Program-made: the position numbers
From: Myxococcota bacterium
Lineage (GTDB): Bacteria > Myxococcota_A > UBA9160 > UBA6930
DNA length: 64,000 nucleotides
Assembly: GCA_965223415.1 (NCBI GenBank)
Contig: OZ245002.1
Coordinates: forward strand, 3,136,001 to 3,200,000
Reading direction: 5' to 3'
Part shown: positions 9,001 to 21,000 of the stretch, piece after piece
Layout: every line of letters starts with the position of its first letter
Position numbering within the stretch: position 1 is the stretch's first letter

Positions 9001-12000
9001 GTTCGCGGGTCGTTCGGGTCCACCGGCGGGGGGTCGTACTCGCCTTCCTGGTCGAGGAGCGTGTAGCGGAAGACGTGGGCGGGCTGGCCGGGGGGCGTGA
9101 GGCTGGTGAGGTTGCCGCGCAGGTCGTAGGTGAAGTCGATGAAGCGGCTGTCGGGCAGCGTCTGGCGCGTGACGCCGCAGGCAATGCCGCAGACGGCACC
9201 GACCAGCCCTCCAAACAGCCGTTCCCTACGTGTCATCAGTCCTCGCAGAAGCAGCCCGTCGCGGGATCGTCCTCCTGGTAGACGACCGTGGGCCCGGCGG
9301 AGCACACGTTCGCGTGCCCTCCGAGGACGAGGAGAGGGGCAGGATGGCAGTGGCGCCGTAGCGAGCGGCATGGCCACCTAGCGAAGGGGAGCCACGCACA
9401 TTAGTCGGCGGTCGAGGAGTAGTTCAACCGCAATGAGCGGCAAACACGCTCGGATTCCGACGGAAACCGCCGGATCGCGTCAGACCTACCCCATTCGGGG
9501 GATACGATCCGCCCTAGAAGTCGAACCTCGCGCCGACGGTCAACGCGTACTGGTCGACGTAGCTGTCGCCGAGCCGCGTATCGAAGTCGATGAAGGCGAC
9601 CATGCCGCTGGTCAGCACCATGCTCACGCCGGCGCCGACGTTGAACACGTCGCGGTCCGGGCTCTGGGCGCGGAGGCTCAGGCGGGTGCGGTTCAGGTCG
9701 GCAGTGAAGCGGGCGTTGATCGTGCGGGAGTCGTTCTCGAACTCGTGCTCCCACTCGCCGCGCAGGTAGGGCGTGACGATGCCGCTGCCGGTCGAGATGT
9801 CGTAGCTGAGGGTCACGCCGAGGTCCGTCGTCAGGGACGTGATCGACTGGCCCTCGTAGGTGAGGTTCAGGCCCTGAGCACCGCTCTCCCGGGCGCCGTC
9901 GGTATCGACGCCGATGTAGTTCACCTGCAGGTAGGGGTCGATGCCGAGGGCGCCGCTGTCGAGGTTGGCCCCGGCGGCGACGCTCAGGCCCCACTGGTCG
10001 CCGCTCGGGTCGCTGCGCGCCGTCCGGTTCACCGTCGGGTAGACGATGCTGCGCTCGAGGCTGTAGTCCAGGTAGGAGTAGGTCGCGATCGCGTCGACGT
10101 AGAAGGCGTCCTGCTGCCAGGTGCCGTAGGCGGAGAGGCCGTAGGCGTTGCGGTCGAGCTCGCCGGCGCCCCCGTCGAAATCGTTGTCGACGCGGGAGTA
10201 GTTGAACGCCAGGCCGCCCACGAGCGGCTCGCTGAACCGGTAGTCGACACCGACCACCGCGCCGAGGGCGTCGAAGTCGAAGCCGACCTCCTCGTCCCGG
10301 CCGTCGAAGTCGCCCCAGGAGTACAGGCCGTTGCCCCAGAGCCCCCACTTGCCGAGCAGGTCCTGATCCCCCGCGGCGGACCGCTCGCGCAGGGCGCGCT
10401 CGATGTCCTCGCCCTGCAGCGAGCCCCCGTAGGCGTCCCGCAGGTCGAGGCCCGCGAACTGGATGCGCGGGCCGCCTTCGCGCAGGGCCACGAGCCGGTT
10501 GCCGATCACCTCCAGGTTGCGGATGGAGGTCTGGGTCGAGAGGGTGCCGGAGGCCGCCGCCTGGCCGTGGGCCAGGTCCTCGAGGGCCTCGTTGATCTCC
10601 GGGTCCGAGATGTCGAGCAGGCCCGGCACGACGAGCTCGCTGCAGCGATCGAAGAGGTCCTGGGTATCCGCCCCCCAGCCGCGGGTGCCGACGATCGGTG
10701 CCAGGTCGCCGCAGGTGGTGAGGACGAAGTCGCCGCTCAGGCTCTGGAGGCGGCTCTGGCCGCCGAGGGAACCCAGACTCCGCGGAGAGGGCGCCTGCCC
10801 TGCGGGAGCCCCGCCACCGCCACCGCCTCCACCACCGCCGCCCTGGCCGTAGGCCCCGCCGGCGAGGAAGATGCTCGCGATGATGAGCAGGAGCTGAATC
10901 CGGATCGCCCGCGCGCGGACCACCATGTTGACCTCCCTGGGACGACCTCGGCCCGGGCCGTCGCGGGGGATCCTATACCGGGGAAATCCCCAGTGTCAAA
11001 GGGGGTTACGTCGGATCCTGCGTGGAGATGGGGCACTCCGCCGCCAGGCCCAGTGCCCAGAGACCGGCCAGGCCGAGCCCCAGCAGGAGCCGGGTCGAGC
11101 GCTCCGCCACCAGCCCGGCGCCGTCCCTGGCGCCCGGAAGCCCCGCCGGGCGGCGATCTCGAGGGGCTCCTCGAGGAAGCGCTCGACGATCTGCGCCTCG
11201 CCCTCGACTCCTTGCCCCCGGACCAGGCGGACCCGCTGACCCTGCTCGGCCTCCTGCGGCCGCGCCTGGAGCGACGGGTGCGGAGCGCGTCGCTCCGTCT
11301 CGACTGGCGGGTGAGCGACGCCGGGGAGGGCCGGGGCATGGCCAATTTTCGCCACCGCGCCGAGGAGCTCGGCGCCGACCTGCGGATCGAGTCGACCGAC
11401 GCGGGGACGCGCCTGCGGATGGTCTTTCCCGGGCCTGCCGCTACCGCCCCATGAAGCGGAGGTGATCCTCGCCCTGGAGGTGGTCGGGCTCGACCCAGTA
11501 GTCGCCGCGAACCGCAGGCAGGAGGATGTCCCGGGCGGCCTGGTCGTCGCCGCCCAGGACCAGCCAGGCGCCCGTGCCGAGCACCGCTCCGCCCGCGGCG
11601 GTGAACGCCTTGATCGGCGTGTAGAGCAGGCTGGCGCCCACGGCGGCGATCCACCAGCCGGCGCCTTCCGTTTCGGCGGCGGCAGGCCGGGGGTGAGCGA
11701 CGAGCACGAGCGCCAGCAGGGCGGCGCAGAGGAGGCCCAGGGGCCTTCGGTTGGTTCGGAGTCGGCGCATCGGAGGTCCTTCCTGTCGGGTTCGGAGGTC
11801 GGGGTTCCGAGAGAAGGGGTGGGCCCCGATCCCGCGAGGGGACCGGGGCCCGGGGTGGGGGAGGGAGCGGACGAGCTAGCGGTTGCGGCCGGAGACGGCG
11901 CCCACGGTGCCGACGTTCGACACGGCGGTCGCGCGGTTGGCCGTGGCCTTGGTCGTGATGTCCCGGCTGCGGGTCTTGATCTTGACGTCGCCCTCGAGGC

Positions 12001-18000: not shown

Positions 18001-21000
18001 TGCCGGACCGGGCGCCGACCGATGGCCAGAACCGCCGCGTCCAGTTCGGCGGCCTCGGCGCTCGTTAGGTCAGGGAGCCTACCCGTGGTCCGTAGCCTCC
18101 TGGTTGCCCTCGCCGCACTCGCGGCCCTGTTCGGTAGCGTCGCTCCCGGCTGGGCCGCGAAGCGGGCCCTGATCGTCGGGATCAACGACTACCGGGGCGA
18201 GAACAGCGGTGGGCGCTGGCGCGACCTCCGCGGCGCCGTGAACGACGCCGAGGCCATGCGCTCGCTGCTGGTCTCCCGCTTCGGCTTCGCGGGGGACGAC
18301 GTGGTGCTGCTGCGCGACGCCGAGGCGACCCGGGAGCGCATCCTCGCCGAGATCGAGGGGCACCTGGTCGCTCCGGCGAAGCCCGGCGACGTCGCCTTCT
18401 TCCACTTCGCCGGTCACGGCTCCCAGGTGCGCAACGCCCAGGGCCAGGAGCTCGATCGGCTGGACGAGACGATCGTCCCCGCCGATTCGCGGCTGGGCGC
18501 GCCGGACATCCGCGACAAGGAGCTGCGGGTCCGCTTCAACGACGTGCTCGACCGGGGTGCCGACCTGGTCGCCGTCTTCGACAGCTGCAGCAGCGGCTCC
18601 ATCCTGCGCTCGCTCCAGGCGGTGCGCTTCCTGCCGCCGGGCGACGCGCCGGCTCCCGCCCTGGCGCCGGAGCGCCGGGCGCCGCCGGAGGAGCGCGGCG
18701 CGCTGCTGCTCTCCGCCGCCTCGAGCGGGCTGCCTGCCGCCGAGACGAAGGACGCCGCCGGCCGGCCTCGCGGCGCCCTGAGCTTCGCCCTGATCCGCGC
18801 CCTGCGGGAGGCGGCGCTGGACGAGCCCGCGGACCAGCTCTTCCTGCGCGTGCGCAGCGCGCTGCTGGCCGAGGACCTGGGCCAGGCCCCGGTGCTCGCC
18901 GCCACCTCCGAGCGTCGCGCCCGCCCGCTGCTCGGCGGGGAGGCGCAGGCGGCGGGCGCGACCCGGGTCGGCGTCCTGCGCGTCCGCAGCGACGGCCTCG
19001 TCGAACTCGACGCCGGCGCGGCCAGCGGCCTGAACCCGGGGGCCGAGCTGGTCTCGAACCGCATTGGCGATACGCGCCGGCTGCGCGTGGTCGAGGTGCC
19101 GGGCGTCGCCCTGGCCCTGGCCCGGGTGAGCGGCGGCGATGCGGCGTCGCTCCAGCCGGGCGATCTCTTCCGTCTCGACCGTTGGAGCGCCCCGGACGGC
19201 GCCGCGCTGCGCATCCTGCTGCCCGAAGCGGCGCCGCCCGCCCAGGGGAAGGCGCTTCACGCCGCCGCCGCGGCACTGCGCGTCGAGGCCGCCGCCCGGG
19301 GCGTGACCTGGGTCGAGGATCCGACCACCCAGCGCCCGACCCACCGCCTGGTGTGGCGGGCGGCCGGCGGCTGGATGCTTCGCGGGCCCGACGCCGAGCA
19401 GCCCGTCGGTGCGCTCGACCCGGCGCGCGCCGCCTCCCTCGTCTCCGGGCTGCCGCAGGGCGCGAGCCTGCTCGTGGAACTTCCCCCCGCCCCGGGCCTG
19501 CGCCGCGCCCTCGCCGAGCGGGCCGCGGCCGCCGGAGGCTCCATCGAGCTGGTCGGCCCGGAGGCGGCCCACTTCGCGCTCGTCGGCGTCCTGCGCGGCG
19601 ACGGCGTTCACCACGCCTGGGTGCGGCCCGGGGCTTCGCTTCGCCGTGAGGTCGGCGGGCTCCCGCCGCGCAGCGACTGGACGAAAGCCCAGGGTGCGAG
19701 CGCTGCCCTCGGCGCCTCCCTCGACGCGCTGCTGCGCATCCGCTCGTGGCTGACGCTTCCGGCGCCGCCCGACGAGGGGCGCTTCCCCTACCGCCTCGCC
19801 CTGCGCCGCGAGAGTGACGGCCGCCGCGTTCCCGGCGGCGCCGTGCGCGCCGGCGAGCGCTACCGCATCGCCCTCGAGGCCGAGCGCCCGGGGCCGCGCT
19901 CATCGATCGAGCCGCGCTACGTCTACGTCTTCGCCATCGACGCCTTCGGCCGCCAGGCGCTGGTGTTCCCGACCGCTGACCGCGGCAACGCCGAGAACCG
20001 CATGCCGCCCCCGGGCGCCCTCGGCGCCCCCGCGCCGCCGGTGCTTCCCGTCGGCTCGATCGAGATCGCGCCGCCCTTCGGCCACGAGACCCTGGTCATG
20101 GTCACCAGCGCCACGCCCTTGGCCGACCCCCGGGTCCTCGAGGGCCGCGGCGTCCGCACCCGCACCGGCTCCGCCCTCGAGCAGCTGCTCGGCTGGGTCG
20201 GTACCCCGTCCCGCGCGCCCCGTACCGCCACCCCCACCAGCTGGGGCATCCAGCGGCTCTCCCTCGTGAGCCTGCCCCGTCAAGGAGAGTGAGATGTTCC
20301 GCAAGCTCGCCCTGATCCTGCTCGCCTGCGGCGCGCTCGCCCTCCCGGCCAGCGCCCAGCCGCCCTGCAACACCAGCAAGGGCTCGACCCAGGCGATGGA
20401 GTGTCTGGCGAAGAAGCTCCACGATCTCGAGTCGGAGCTGCGACGCGCCATCGTCCTGTTCGAGCGCCACCACTGCCCGGAGGGCTGGATCGCCCTCGAG
20501 GAGGCCAAGGTAGGGGAGATCCGCGGGACGTTCCGGAACCCGAGCTTCCCGCTGGTCTACTGCAAGAAGCTCGACGGCTAGCGCGGGGCAGAATGCGATA
20601 CCGCGAAGCCATCCGGGCGGACGCGGAGGCCGTCGCGGCGCTTCACGCCGAGAGCTGGCGCGCCCACTACCGCGGGGCCTACCGCGACGGGTACCTGGAT
20701 GGGGACGTCGTCTCCGACCGTCGCAGGGTCTGGGAGGAGCGCTTCGCGTCCCCGCCGCCGAATCAGCACGTCGTCCTGGCGGAAGGCGCCGGCGCGCTGG
20801 TCGGCTTCGCATGCGTCTACGGCGGGGAGGACGAGCGATGGGGATCGCTGCTCGACAACCTGCACGTCCGCCCCGGGCAGCAGGGGCGCGGCGTCGGCGC
20901 CGCGCTGGTCGCGGAGGTGGCCGCATGGTGTCGCCGGCGGTTCCCGAACGCGGGGCTCTACCTGTGGGTGCTGGCGGAGAACGAGGGCGCGCAGCGCTTC

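Follow-up and report, generated by a model that had tools for sequence, protein, structure and literature searches.

A putative curli-analogous export locus with a CsgG-like lipoprotein and tandem two-repeat subunit genes in a Myxococcota bacterium

A gene cluster on contig OZ245002.1 of a Myxococcota bacterium (GCA_965223415.1) is best explained, with a modest lean on our part, as a curli-analogous (type VIII-like) export and assembly system whose parts, apart from the channel, lie outside described families. The window, i.e. the whole stretch of DNA analysed, spans 64,000 nucleotides (contig positions 3,136,001 to 3,200,000), and coordinates count from its first letter. We computed the gene anatomy of the locus, the homology and fold of its CsgG-like protein and the loss of the constriction loop, the gene linkage in other bacteria, the solenoid and stacking models, and the promoter set. 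Gene positions and order agreed throughout with a first-pass annotation of this DNA.

Results and discussion

Subunit genes and their family

The small secreted protein that we call the subunit is encoded in three tandem copies.

11876-12199, minus strand: subunit copy 1, ORF of 107 aa with a signal peptide and two repeats of about 37 aa
12379-12702, minus strand: subunit copy 2, ORF of 107 aa, 85% identical to copies 1 and 3
12895-13218, minus strand: subunit copy 3, ORF of 107 aa, protein identical to copy 1
12320-12353, minus strand: terminator-like hairpin, 15 pairs and a T run, 3' of subunit copy 2
12831-12876, minus strand: second copy of the hairpin repeat (family D2, 89% identical), 3' of subunit copy 3
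11441-11770, minus strand: ORF for a hydrophobic 109-aa protein between the subunit genes and an autotransporter gene, no family matched

The range of 85-100% identity first given for these genes holds. The DNA repeat across them is 300 nt long, its three copies being spaced by 503 and 516 nt with identities of 83% and 96%. The hairpin repeat follows each of the two upstream copies (2 and 3), and one of the two hairpins is scored terminator-like. The mature subunit has 84 aa and is predicted to be Sec-exported; it matches no Pfam or NCBIfam family. Comparison of the subunit profile with curlins gave probabilities of only 4.3% (CsgA) and 0.8% (CsgB), i.e. no detectable likeness, and we rejected the identification of the subunits as curlins on these values.

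The first-pass annotation described a subunit family of 11 proteins. Our search returned the same count (11 at E ≤ 0.01, from 101 candidates), but the rarity it implied did not survive profile searches. A profile of those 11 relatives found 33 representatives among 1.84 billion proteins, and a 66-member profile found 535 protein clusters at E ≤ 1e-3 among 6270 candidates. Judged by sequence, the family is neither rare nor nearly unique. Within the bacterium's own order, where a single copy in one other genome had been claimed, the subunit is present in 6 of 193 genomes including this one, and the relative G169 carries five tandem copies. A g61 gene (the CsgG-like lipoprotein described below) and a strong subunit match occur together in 5 of these 193 genomes; the exceptions are one genome with g61 only, one with the DUF4384 part only and one with a weak subunit match only (E 5e-4). 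Across all 57,786 six-frame ORFs of the present genome, the iterated subunit profile gave no hits but the three copies (next best E 0.084). Multi-repeat relatives contain 4-8 repeats, each of about 37 aa.

The CsgG-like lipoprotein g61

15873-17453, plus strand: g61 lipoprotein, CsgG-fold N-domain followed by PG_binding_1 and DUF4384, lipobox at Cys29
17514-18068, plus strand: OmpA-like peptidoglycan-binding protein, 184 aa (PF00691, E 2.7e-20)

The true start of g61 may be Met18, at position 15924; the lipobox cysteine is at least 90% conserved. The earlier Pfam values were reproduced, with E-values of 0.023 for CsgG (14.4 bits, below the cut-off of 20.8), 7.8e-8 for PG_binding_1 and 7.2e-15 for DUF4384. 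The NCBIfam model holdfast_HfaB also matched (E 3e-5), at 23.3 bits and thus far under its cut-off of 300. The g61 family profile aligned by hhalign to E. coli CsgG with 95.7% probability (E 9e-9) over 236 columns, from the lipobox to the C-terminal helix. AlphaFold2 modelled residues 1-290 with pLDDT 80.9 and pTM 0.71; in this model, residues 138-190 and 195-235 each form a very long beta-hairpin. In Foldseek the top rows for the N-domain were all CsgG (best E 1.6e-13), and VIA superposed it on membrane-form CsgG with Z 16.8 and an rmsd of 4.5 Å over 210 of 246 residues; the next family was PelC (Z 10.8, 121 residues). The claim that the N-terminal half is CsgG-like is borne out, and by profile and predicted fold together the domain is a CsgG homologue over its whole length.

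The protein does not have the 12 residues that carry the CsgG constriction, or eyelet, formed by Tyr66, Asn70 and Phe71 as named in PMC7304575. Because g61 falls below the CsgG and HfaB cut-offs and is without these 12 residues, it may be something other than a gated peptide channel, and possibly no pore at all. A poreless g61 is the starting point of an alternative that we consider unlikely, in which g61 and the OmpA-like protein would join the outer membrane to peptidoglycan and the solenoids would polymerise or dock beneath as a structural or spacing element. The lost constriction fits such a scaffold, as do the Sec signal as the only one on the subunits, from whose sequence no outer-membrane targeting can be read, and the same core fold in non-channel lipoproteins (Z 8-11); the relatives with this fold that are not channels are PelC, LptE, the TolB N-domain and FlgT. 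The two peptidoglycan-binding modules (PG_binding_1 and OmpA) also favour it, although peptidoglycan anchors are found on many trans-envelope secretion machines too. The CsgG match spans 210 residues including both long barrel-forming hairpins, whereas the non-channel relatives share 106-140 core residues, and the membrane-inserted structures 6l7a and 4uv3 match best, ahead of the pre-pore 4uv2 (Z 14.3, 165 residues). Both observations argue for the channel-type reading.

Linkage in other bacteria

15617-15913, plus strand: g60, 98-aa secreted protein with two invariant cysteines, conserved accessory family

About 15 proteins had been reported for g61; its architecture is in fact common, with at least 100 proteins and 272 genome stretches. 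We sampled 80 loci picked through g61 from Alpha-, Beta- and Gammaproteobacteria. With the iterated profile, subunit-like ORFs were found in 63 of them: 43 of the 50 loci in which g61 is flanked by 6 kb or more on each side (7 of the 50 gave none) and 20 of the 30 shorter loci. The nearest such ORF lay within 6 kb of g61 in 61 of the 63 positive loci, and of all 164 such ORFs 155 shared the strand of g61. These ORFs come in tandem runs of 1 to 6 per locus, by a six-frame count that can take in overlapping frames. Clustering over 81 sources (the 80 loci and the present window) placed the g60 family (cluster c4) in 58, on the same strand as g61 in 57 of 57. An OmpA-like gene was detected by tblastn in 61 of 80 loci, and clustering placed one in 59 of 81 sources. 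The subunit, g60, g61 and OmpA genes form a conserved linked set.

Both g60 and its neighbour g59 had been proposed as minor subunits. The g60 family proved to be separate, with partial resemblance to the subunit: its alignment to the subunit profile (hhalign 81.6%, E 1.1e-5) covers 28 columns, so that the C-terminal half resembles about one rung only. We regard g60 as a candidate anchor or nucleator. The proposal finds less in g59, which matches the subunit profile weakly (E 0.56) and gave no detectable relatives in the 80 g61-centred loci.

Predicted fold and stacking of the subunit

In the model of the subunit, whose repeats have pLDDT 79-95, six strands fall into two groups of three; the predicted fold is a two-rung, three-strand beta-solenoid. 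A four-copy model scored 0.68 against 0.00 for the best of three controls, which were unrelated proteins and not other repeat proteins. Runs agreed in at least 83% of contacts, with partner pLDDT of at least 76. In a calibration on two copies, not four, 20 of 30 solved pairs reached this score mark, as did 1 of 23 single chains, and structure predictors stack beta-solenoid repeats readily. The models predict that subunits stack head to tail and polymerise in a 37-residue register.

Stacking could be a repeat artefact. The two-rung proteins would then still be exported via g61 but would act as monomers or short oligomers, whether soluble or bound to the surface, for instance in an adhesive or protective coat; we judge this quite improbable. 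Each chain has two rungs only, the stacking score carries the caveats above, which the tool itself names, and Foldseek and VIA searches of the subunit model gave no confident fibre homologue. However, both ends of a two-rung solenoid are open, with unsatisfied edges, and relatives extend the same repeat to 4-8 rungs. High-copy tandem genes with their own promoter-like sites suit a structural protein made in bulk. The predicted contacts between chains exactly reproduce those between rungs within a chain: 81-44, 74-37 and 96-59 all show the 37-residue repeat offset.

Among 48,161 chains compared by VIA, HET-s was the only one at Z ≥ 2, within noise (Z 2.1, rmsd 5.9 Å, 66 residues). HET-s is cytoplasmic and fungal, and its rungs are shorter, about 21 aa. 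One chain of HET-s(218-289) (PDB 2kj3, 2rnm) forms two rungs of a stacking beta-solenoid with three strands per rung, as in the subunit model. Because Z is only 2.1, the likeness is one of design and no evidence of kinship.

Promoter-like sites and the sigma factor

13362-14273, plus strand: ECF-type factor of the sigma-70 family, 303 aa, extended at both the N- and the C-terminus (TIGR02937, 49.3 bits, cut-off 42.9)
14326-15159, plus strand: g58, ORF for a single-pass membrane protein, no family matched
15237-15554, plus strand: g59, small exported protein, possibly a lipoprotein, with a VTNIGSV motif; last gene of the sigma unit
12259-12288, minus strand: promoter-like site P1, GTGATCCG-N16-CGACCCC, about 60 nt before subunit copy 1
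12769-12798, minus strand: promoter-like site P2, before subunit copy 2
13278-13307, minus strand: promoter-like site P3, before subunit copy 3
15551-15580, plus strand: promoter-like site P4, before g60-g61-OmpA-caspase
21426-21455, minus strand: promoter-like site P5, with a 63-aa cysteine-rich ORF (21214-21405)
21862-21891, minus strand: promoter-like site P6, with a 112-aa ORF (21479-21817)
21926-21955, plus strand: promoter-like site P7, with an alpha/beta hydrolase (21975-22658)
22673-22702, plus strand: promoter-like site P8, with a 60-aa ORF (22722-22904)

These eight sites are near-identical, with the consensus GTGATCCG-N16-CGACYCC, against 0.07 expected in the window. The motif has 17 matches genome-wide, and all 8 with GTGATCCG and the 30-nt length sit within 10.5 kb here. 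In G169, 5 such sites (0.04 expected) precede the subunit genes and the g60-g61 operon. The eight sites mark a local regulon. A search for expression data listed no RNA run. The neighbouring sigma factor, which matches Sigma70_r2 and Sigma70_r4 and has syntenic copies in G169 (58% identical) and G074 (52%), is presumably their reader. Placement and topology suggest that g58 is anti-sigma-like; a 39% identical copy follows the sigma gene in G169.

Caspase and other accessory genes

18022-20292, plus strand: exported caspase-family protease (PF00656, Peptidase_C14, E 3.8e-23) with a C-terminal DUF4384 (E 5.6e-5), clade-specific accessory
9514-10926, minus strand: autotransporter beta-domain protein with a short passenger, 470 aa (PF03797, E 1.4e-65), syntenic accessory

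The caspase gene is syntenic in G169, where a neighbouring gene also encodes a protein 40% identical to the autotransporter; the autotransporter occurs in G074, L027 and L045 as well. The sigma factor, g58 and the caspase had been listed with the locus. Over the 80 g61 loci, tblastn detected the sigma factor and g58 in none and the caspase in 8 (clustering placed caspases, as cluster c36, in 6 loci), so these three are not core parts; the sigma factor and caspase are clade-specific extras.

This distribution bears on a further alternative, to which we give very little weight, in which the exported caspase would be the active principle, docked under the outer membrane by g61 (through DUF4384) and OmpA, with the small basic-tailed proteins as substrates or effector pro-forms. 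DUF4384 is common to the caspase and g61, the caspase His and Cys motifs (AGHG and DSCSSG, read by eye in the translation) are present, the subunits and g60 of this clade carry Arg-rich C-terminal tails, and caspase genes do lie near some g61 homologues. Against this, 72 of the 80 loci gave no tblastn caspase match, and most loci that keep the subunit, g60, g61 and OmpA do so without it. Since the caspase is mostly absent and a protein with an HExxH motif takes its place in betaproteobacterial loci, a protease may accompany the system but would not define it.

Comparison with known systems and proposed model

The parallel with curli drawn earlier is upheld in part. As in E. coli curli, the locus combines a CsgG-family outer-membrane lipoprotein, by profile and fold, with small Sec-exported repeat subunits predicted as head-to-tail stacking beta-solenoids, a second small protein partly resembling the subunit (here g60), and subunit genes lying apart from the channel operon. 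Membership in the curli system itself does not hold. The present subunits have three-strand rungs of about 37 aa without likeness to curlin repeats, g61 is without the eyelet residues and bears the extra PG_binding_1 and DUF4384, an OmpA-like partner is conserved, and an ECF-type sigma factor presumably takes the place of a CsgD-type regulator. CsgE and CsgF were not found for the system: in the genome (one contig, 5.83 Mb), CsgG, Curlin_rpt and CsgE gave no match at E ≤ 1 and CsgF a single one below cut-off (E 0.28), in line with the earlier statement that canonical curli genes are missing.

A CsgG-like lipoprotein is also common to the present locus and the Caulobacter HfaA/HfaB/HfaD system. 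According to PMC6707917, HfaB is needed there for surface display of small non-curlin proteins that form SDS- and heat-resistant multimers. No holdfast-anchor model was among the NCBIfam hits of the subunits and g60 at E ≤ 1, a search of family models and not of HfaA or HfaD sequences, and the cluster showed no genes for holdfast polysaccharide.

In the curli-like model that we favour, each of the three subunit genes has a promoter-like site to itself, and together they would supply the Sec-exported 84-aa protein, which would fold into two rungs of a three-stranded beta-solenoid. The g61 protein would assemble in the outer membrane into an oligomeric channel of the CsgG type; PG_binding_1 and DUF4384, at its C-terminus, would lie in the periplasm and, with the OmpA-like protein, tether the machine to the cell wall. 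Subunits would exit via g61 and add to one another head to tail, giving a continuous cross-beta solenoid fibre or surface coat, with g60 as the likeliest anchor or template at the channel. The ECF-type sigma factor, restrained by g58, would activate the whole set via the eight promoters, and the caspase and autotransporter would be lineage-specific additions. Here we infer pore formation, subunit passage through g61 and a fibre outside the cell, as well as the role of g60, the sigma factor that reads the sites and any target of the caspase.

Because of the CsgG homology, the linkage of subunit and g61 over three proteobacterial classes and the predicted head-to-tail polymerisation, the system probably works like curli. 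The cluster recurs in hundreds of bacteria and probably makes a surface fibre of a kind not recognised until now.

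Organization of the gene cluster

The genome is a single contig of 5.83 Mb with 70% G+C, and the G+C content of the window region is 0.68-0.79. The cluster comprises three tandem genes for a secreted two-repeat protein, here called the subunit, and a series of genes on the opposite strand.

Features of the cluster (window coordinates, strand, product)
11876-12199, 12379-12702 and 12895-13218, minus: subunit genes, 107 aa each
Plus: ECF-type sigma factor, 303 aa; TIGR02937 at 49.3 bits (cut-off 42.9), Sigma70_r2, Sigma70_r4 and Sigma70_r4_2 above their cut-offs
Plus: g58, single-pass membrane protein, after the sigma factor gene
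Plus: g59, small exported protein
15617-15913, plus: g60, secreted protein, 98 aa
Plus: g61, lipoprotein, 526 aa; PG_binding_1 (E 7.8e-8), DUF4384 (E 7.2e-15), sub-threshold CsgG (E 0.023)
Plus: OmpA-like protein; PF00691 at 73 bits (cut-off 27.2)
Plus: exported caspase with a second DUF4384 domain, 756 aa; Peptidase_C14 (PF00656) at 82.8 bits (cut-off 21.4)

Subunit copies 1 and 3 encode identical proteins, copy 2 is 85% identical to them, and the genome has these three copies only. A 300-nt DNA repeat with spacings of 503 and 516 nt underlies the genes, and copies of a hairpin repeat follow copies 2 and 3, the one after copy 2 scoring as terminator-like. In the caspase translation, AGHG and DSCSSG were picked by eye as the putative catalytic His and Cys motifs. 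The first-pass annotation had described this cluster and stated that the genome has no canonical CsgG, curlin, CsgE or CsgF gene. Gene positions, copy identities and domain matches agree with the description. The genome searches gave no match to PF03783 (CsgG) at E≤1, no Curlin_rpt and no CsgE, and the best CsgF match (E 0.28) lies at an unrelated place. The gene anatomy and the genome-wide copy and curli-family searches therefore confirm both observations.

Other genes lie around the cluster. Directly 3' of the caspase gene, window 20294-20581 (plus) encodes a 95-aa secreted protein with four cysteines and no family match. The gene at window 9514-10926 (minus) codes for an autotransporter beta-domain protein whose short passenger is rich in glycine; a 40% identical copy is present in the syntenic cluster of G169, a relative from the same order, and autotransporter matches also occur near the g61 homologues of a second relative (G074) and of loci L027 and L045. 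Window 7723-8841 (plus) encodes an alpha/beta hydrolase of ORF cluster c37, whose members are found near the system here and in five other loci, in one of them paired with a small caspase (L030:6162-8062).

The N-terminal domain of g61 is a divergent CsgG homologue

Against Pfam CsgG (PF03783), g61 scored 14.4 bits (E 0.023), under the gathering cut-off of 20.8. Searching the PDB sequences with a g61 profile gave a weak match to the peptidoglycan-binding part of an L,D-transpeptidase, and CsgG at E 0.67. When the g61 family profile was aligned to E. coli CsgG by hhalign (95.7%, E 9e-9, 236 columns), g61 17-285 matched CsgG 4-273 of 277, i.e., the full length. Cys29 of g61, which follows a hydrophobic leader, aligns to CsgG Cys16, lipobox cysteine on lipobox cysteine; all of 22 sequences share it, and its conservation over 70 sequences is at least 90%.

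The AlphaFold2 model of g61 residues 1-290, built with a 70-sequence alignment, had a pLDDT of 80.9 and a pTM of 0.71. It contains two beta-hairpins with strands of about 25 residues (138-164/167-190 and 195-221/224-235). The best Foldseek rows with this model were all CsgG (top E 1.6e-13). VIA-align superposed it on membrane-form CsgG with Z 16.8 and an rmsd of 4.5 Å over 210 of 246 residues, and the runner-up family was PelC (Z 10.8, 121 residues). In this predicted model, g61 thus appears to have the CsgG fold, including the two long barrel-forming hairpins. Because the profile, the fold and the lipobox all match, the N-terminal domain of g61 is a true, divergent CsgG homologue despite failing the Pfam cut-off.

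The N-terminal 290 residues of g61 retrieved at least 100 relatives, nearly all of the CsgG-like/PG_binding_1/DUF4384 type, in a search whose size window was the whole protein length. A scan of one genome per species with a 22-row alignment found 272 stretches encoding a g61 relative. The best 80 of these, which we examined as g61-centred loci (L-numbers), come from Alpha-, Beta- and Gammaproteobacteria and one record titled Myxococcales. Two pairs of loci, L005/L084 and L011/L024, are each two separate g61 loci from the same metagenome-assembled genome, so some genomes have more than one copy of the system.

Missing constriction in the CsgG-like domain

The hhalign alignment leaves a 12-residue gap in the g61 family opposite CsgG YPASNFSTAVPQ. 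This stretch carries Tyr66, Asn70 and Phe71 (precursor numbering), the three rings lining the 12-Å eyelet of CsgG (PMC7304575). MAFFT also gave a shorter loop in the g61 family, with Gly, Met and Leu at the Tyr66, Asn70 and Phe71 columns. Three stand-alone relatives of 292-294 aa, two of them CsgG-positive by precomputed Pfam, likewise have the short loop without Tyr, Asn and Phe. Together, the hhalign gap and the short MAFFT loop indicate that the whole g61 subfamily lacks the canonical constriction.

For the reading in which g61 exports the subunits, the eyelet loss matters most: the pore may be wider and let folded rungs through, it may be closed off by g60 or the periplasmic domains, or g61 may not form one at all. 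A periplasmic scaffold assembled from these proteins without export has to be weighed at the same point; we consider it unlikely, and export through g61 is the reading followed below.

Relation to curli and holdfast systems

The parallel with curli secretion drawn in the first-pass annotation holds in part: hhalign and the predicted fold support the CsgG homology, but the curlin repeat, CsgE, CsgF and the eyelet are all absent. We examined the subunit as a curlin and rejected it, with no Curlin_rpt (PF07012) at E≤1 in the three window subunits or in 12 diverse relatives; the subunit profile aligned to CsgA at 4.3% and to CsgB at 0.8% by hhalign. Likewise, g60 was rejected as CsgF (0.14% in profile comparison) and as CsgE (0.16%). 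Because the eyelet, curlin repeat, CsgE and CsgF tests failed, this gene cluster does not belong to the curli system.

Nor does g61 fit the holdfast anchor protein HfaB (NF037935), scoring 23.3 bits (E 3e-5) against an equivalog cut-off of 300. The Caulobacter holdfast anchor shows that CsgG-like proteins can serve multimer-forming substrates other than curlins (PMC6707917). The system would be a CsgG-family channel with new substrates and accessories. In our literature searches, no paper contained DUF4384 and CsgG together. Papers on DUF4384, judged by the openings of their abstracts, concern caspases, kinases, CRISPR or Deinococcus and do not describe the system there. Nor was it found in the portions seen of the "CsgG-like" literature, in which NanoporeDB surveys CsgG-like pores without it.

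Size and sequence of the subunit family

The 11 family members counted in the first-pass annotation were reproduced by a single-sequence search. The impression that the family is nearly unique did not survive profile searches: a profile of the 11 found 33 members among 1.84 billion representatives, and a profile of a 66-member alignment, scored on 6270 candidates, picked up 535 protein clusters at E≤1e-3. None of the 120 clusters listed has a Pfam domain, and their source names, where given, are "hypothetical protein" except for one LpoB. Twelve diverse relatives gave nothing above cut-off in Pfam or NCBIfam. In the ESM Atlas, only unnamed proteobacterial clusters matched the subunit (best 0.89) and g60 (best 0.94), and a PDB sequence search with the subunit profile returned chance rows only (a signal-peptide match and a designed TPR protein).

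We then looked for subunits in six-frame translations of the 80 loci (stop-to-stop ORFs of at least 45 aa), iterating the profile four times. Over the iterations, a yield of 45 ORFs (32 sources) grew to 153 ORFs, found in 63 loci and the window and so in 64 of the 81 sources. To check for drift, we applied the final profile to all 57,786 six-frame ORFs of the window's own genome, where it returned only the three known copies (next E 0.084). Of the 50 loci in which g61 is flanked by 6 kb or more on each side, 43 contained a subunit-like ORF; among the 30 shorter loci, 20 did. The nearest one lay within 6 kb of g61 in 61 of 63 positive loci, and 155 of 164 subunit-like ORFs were on the g61 strand. 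Because plain tblastn with the window proteins found subunits in only 14 and g60 in only 5 of the 80 loci, the profile and clustering were needed for the remaining loci.

In the consensus of the family, a signal peptide precedes repeats, each about 37 aa long, of the type x-G-N/D-T/V-x-I-x-A/V-x-T-x-N/D-x-T-A-V-A-x-G-x-x-N-x-A-x-N-x-x-G-x-I, and some members have 4-8 repeats. Two kinds of subunit are prominent in Betaproteobacteria, a single-copy one with a C-terminal cysteine pair (…KACTNIGGIVSDECK) and a cysteine-free one in one to four tandem copies 3' of the OmpA gene. The window subunits are cysteine-free, and those of G169 have the cysteine pair.

Predicted subunit fold and stacking

With the 66-row alignment, the pLDDT of the subunit model rose from the 49 reported earlier to 75.4 overall and 79-95 over the repeats. 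Strands were predicted at 35-40, 44-48 and 54-59 and again at 72-77, 81-85 and 91-96; in this model the subunit is two rungs of three strands. Foldseek gave no match at E≤0.001, its weak rows being bactofilin, ice-binding proteins and HET-s (E 5.6). Over 48,161 chains, the sole VIA match of at least Z 2 was HET-s(218-289), with Z 2.1 and an rmsd of 5.9 Å over 66 residues. The likeness to HET-s is one of design and is not evidence of kinship.

Four copies of residues 26-107 folded together with a score of 0.68 (runs 0.70, 0.68 and 0.68), against 0.00 for the best of three controls, which were unrelated proteins and not other solenoids. When the tool was calibrated, with two copies and other alignments, 20 of 30 solved pairs but also 1 of 23 single chains came up to its mark. 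The runs agreed in at least 83% of contacts, with a partner pLDDT of at least 76. Since the contacts of highest certainty (81-44, 74-37, 83-46 and 96-59) are offset by exactly one repeat, from i+37 in one chain to i in its neighbour, repeat 2 of one molecule would lie on repeat 1 of the next, as within the molecule. These predicted contacts support head-to-tail polymerization of the subunit but do not show it. Set beside them, an exported coat protein that forms no fibre seems rather improbable.

Companion genes and distribution

Around the start of g61, from 8 kb before it to 9.5 kb past it, we grouped all ORFs of 60 aa or more by all-against-all BLASTP, leaving out as shadow ORFs the clusters antisense to conserved genes (same-strand count 0). 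The recurrent sense-strand families beside the subunits were g61 (79 of 81 sources), the OmpA-like protein (59 of 81) and the g60 family (58 of 81). All 57 of 57 g60-family genes are on the g61 strand, directly 5' of g61 or of OmpA. The family has two invariant cysteines and one invariant glycine, with no match in Pfam. The C-terminal half of g60 aligns to the end of subunit rung 1 and the start of rung 2 (hhalign 81.6%, E 1.1e-5, 28 columns).

By tblastn across the 80 loci, the sigma factor and g58 were each found in none and the caspase in 8; all three are kept in two relatives from the window's own order. A module centred on the caspase would be another way to read the cluster, but most loci keep the core without a caspase. 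This weakens the idea, which we regard as very improbable, and we retain the reading centred on g61 and the subunits.

G169 has five subunit genes, g60, g61 (42%), OmpA (48%), the caspase, the sigma factor (58%), g58 (39%) and the autotransporter (40%). Among 193 genomes of the order, which as related genomes are non-independent samples, 6 had a subunit match, 7 a g61 match and 5 both. The exceptions were one genome with g61 only, one with the DUF4384 part only and one with a weak subunit match (E 5e-4). The five other genomes of the window's own genus, in fragmented assemblies of 280-700 contigs, had neither. The system spans Alpha-, Beta- and Gammaproteobacteria and the window's order, including floc- and granule-forming genera of wastewater such as Accumulibacter, Dechloromonas, Azonexus and Sterolibacterium. 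Of the g61 records that have a name, the closest is a Myxococcales MAG by its title. Cultured, non-pathogenic bacteria among the carriers are Giesbergeria anulus, Denitratisoma oestradiolicum, Caenispirillum salinarum and Dankookia rubra.

Some loci carry further genes. Between g61 and the subunit genes, L030 (11627-13865), L040 (11496-13463) and about 20-32 other betaproteobacterial loci have additional conserved genes. One product, of about 200 aa, has at its end a module with two cysteines that resembles g60; the others are beta-rich and about 105 aa long, about 140-170 aa long, and about 300 aa long with an HExxH motif (HELAHAEYY). Pfam matched none of the four. Some alpha- and gammaproteobacterial loci encode proteins with a DUF2807 (GIN-domain) match beside the subunit genes (cluster c23, 9 loci; L006:3657-4715, L009:7158-8147 and L051:7741-8559); Pfam calls DUF2807 a putative auto-transporter adhesin head. 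A CHASE2-adenylate/guanylate cyclase sensor (cluster c19; L035:3676-5628) lies upstream of g61 homologues in 11 loci, and a FecR-domain protein recurs in 6 (L038:14384-15217).

Promoter-like sites

The upstream regions of the three window and five G169 subunit genes share a GGTGATCC-N16/17-CGACTCC element. GTGATCY-N14-20-CGACYYC was matched 8 times in the window, where 0.07 matches are expected, and 17 times in the whole genome. Of the 17, 8 have GTGATCCG and a length of 30 nt, all at window 12259-22702, and only one of the other 9 has the 30-nt length. About 17-60 nt ahead of every site stands a start codon. Three of these belong to the subunit genes and one to g60, whose site would also serve g61, OmpA and the caspase; the remaining four belong to a cysteine-rich ORF of 63 aa, an ORF of 112 aa, an alpha/beta hydrolase and an ORF of 60 aa. 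In G169, 5 sites (0.04 expected) precede four subunit genes and the g60-g61 operon. No sigma-70-type promoter was found in 11700-13450, the region of the subunit genes. Judged from position and topology, the neighbouring sigma factor may read the eight sites, and g58 may be its anti-sigma factor.

The last four of the eight targets are small transcription units at window 21214-22904; the hydrolase among them is PGAP1/Abhydrolase_6-like and the other three have no family match.

Proposed system and its meaning

The functional statements on this cluster draw on sequence, predicted structure and gene neighbourhood. We think it moderately probable that the system is analogous to curli. The g61 protein would form a CsgG-type pore, with its PG-binding domain and the OmpA-like protein both fastening it to the wall. 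This pore would export the subunits, which would then build a cross-beta solenoid fibre by stacking, with g60 as anchor or template, and the dedicated sigma factor would drive the whole set. More tentatively, the system possibly stands apart from both curli and the holdfast anchor as a third class of CsgG-dependent surface fibre, and a widespread one. Its eyelet-less channel may pass folded or partly folded two-rung subunits, and a disulfide-locked, single-rung g60 would seed and anchor the polymer.

To our knowledge, only two kinds of substrate of CsgG-type channels have been studied, the curlins and the Caulobacter holdfast anchor proteins; if the proposal is true, the cluster would make it three. 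It would also put names to the subunit family (535 clusters) and the g60 accessory family, neither of them catalogued. With eight matching promoter-like sites packed into 10.5 kb, the compact putative sigma regulon would make the system easy to switch on for testing. A natural constriction-free CsgG variant would bear on pore gating and nanopore engineering, and the subunit would be a concrete candidate for the unidentified matrix or amyloid-like proteins of environmental and wastewater bacteria.
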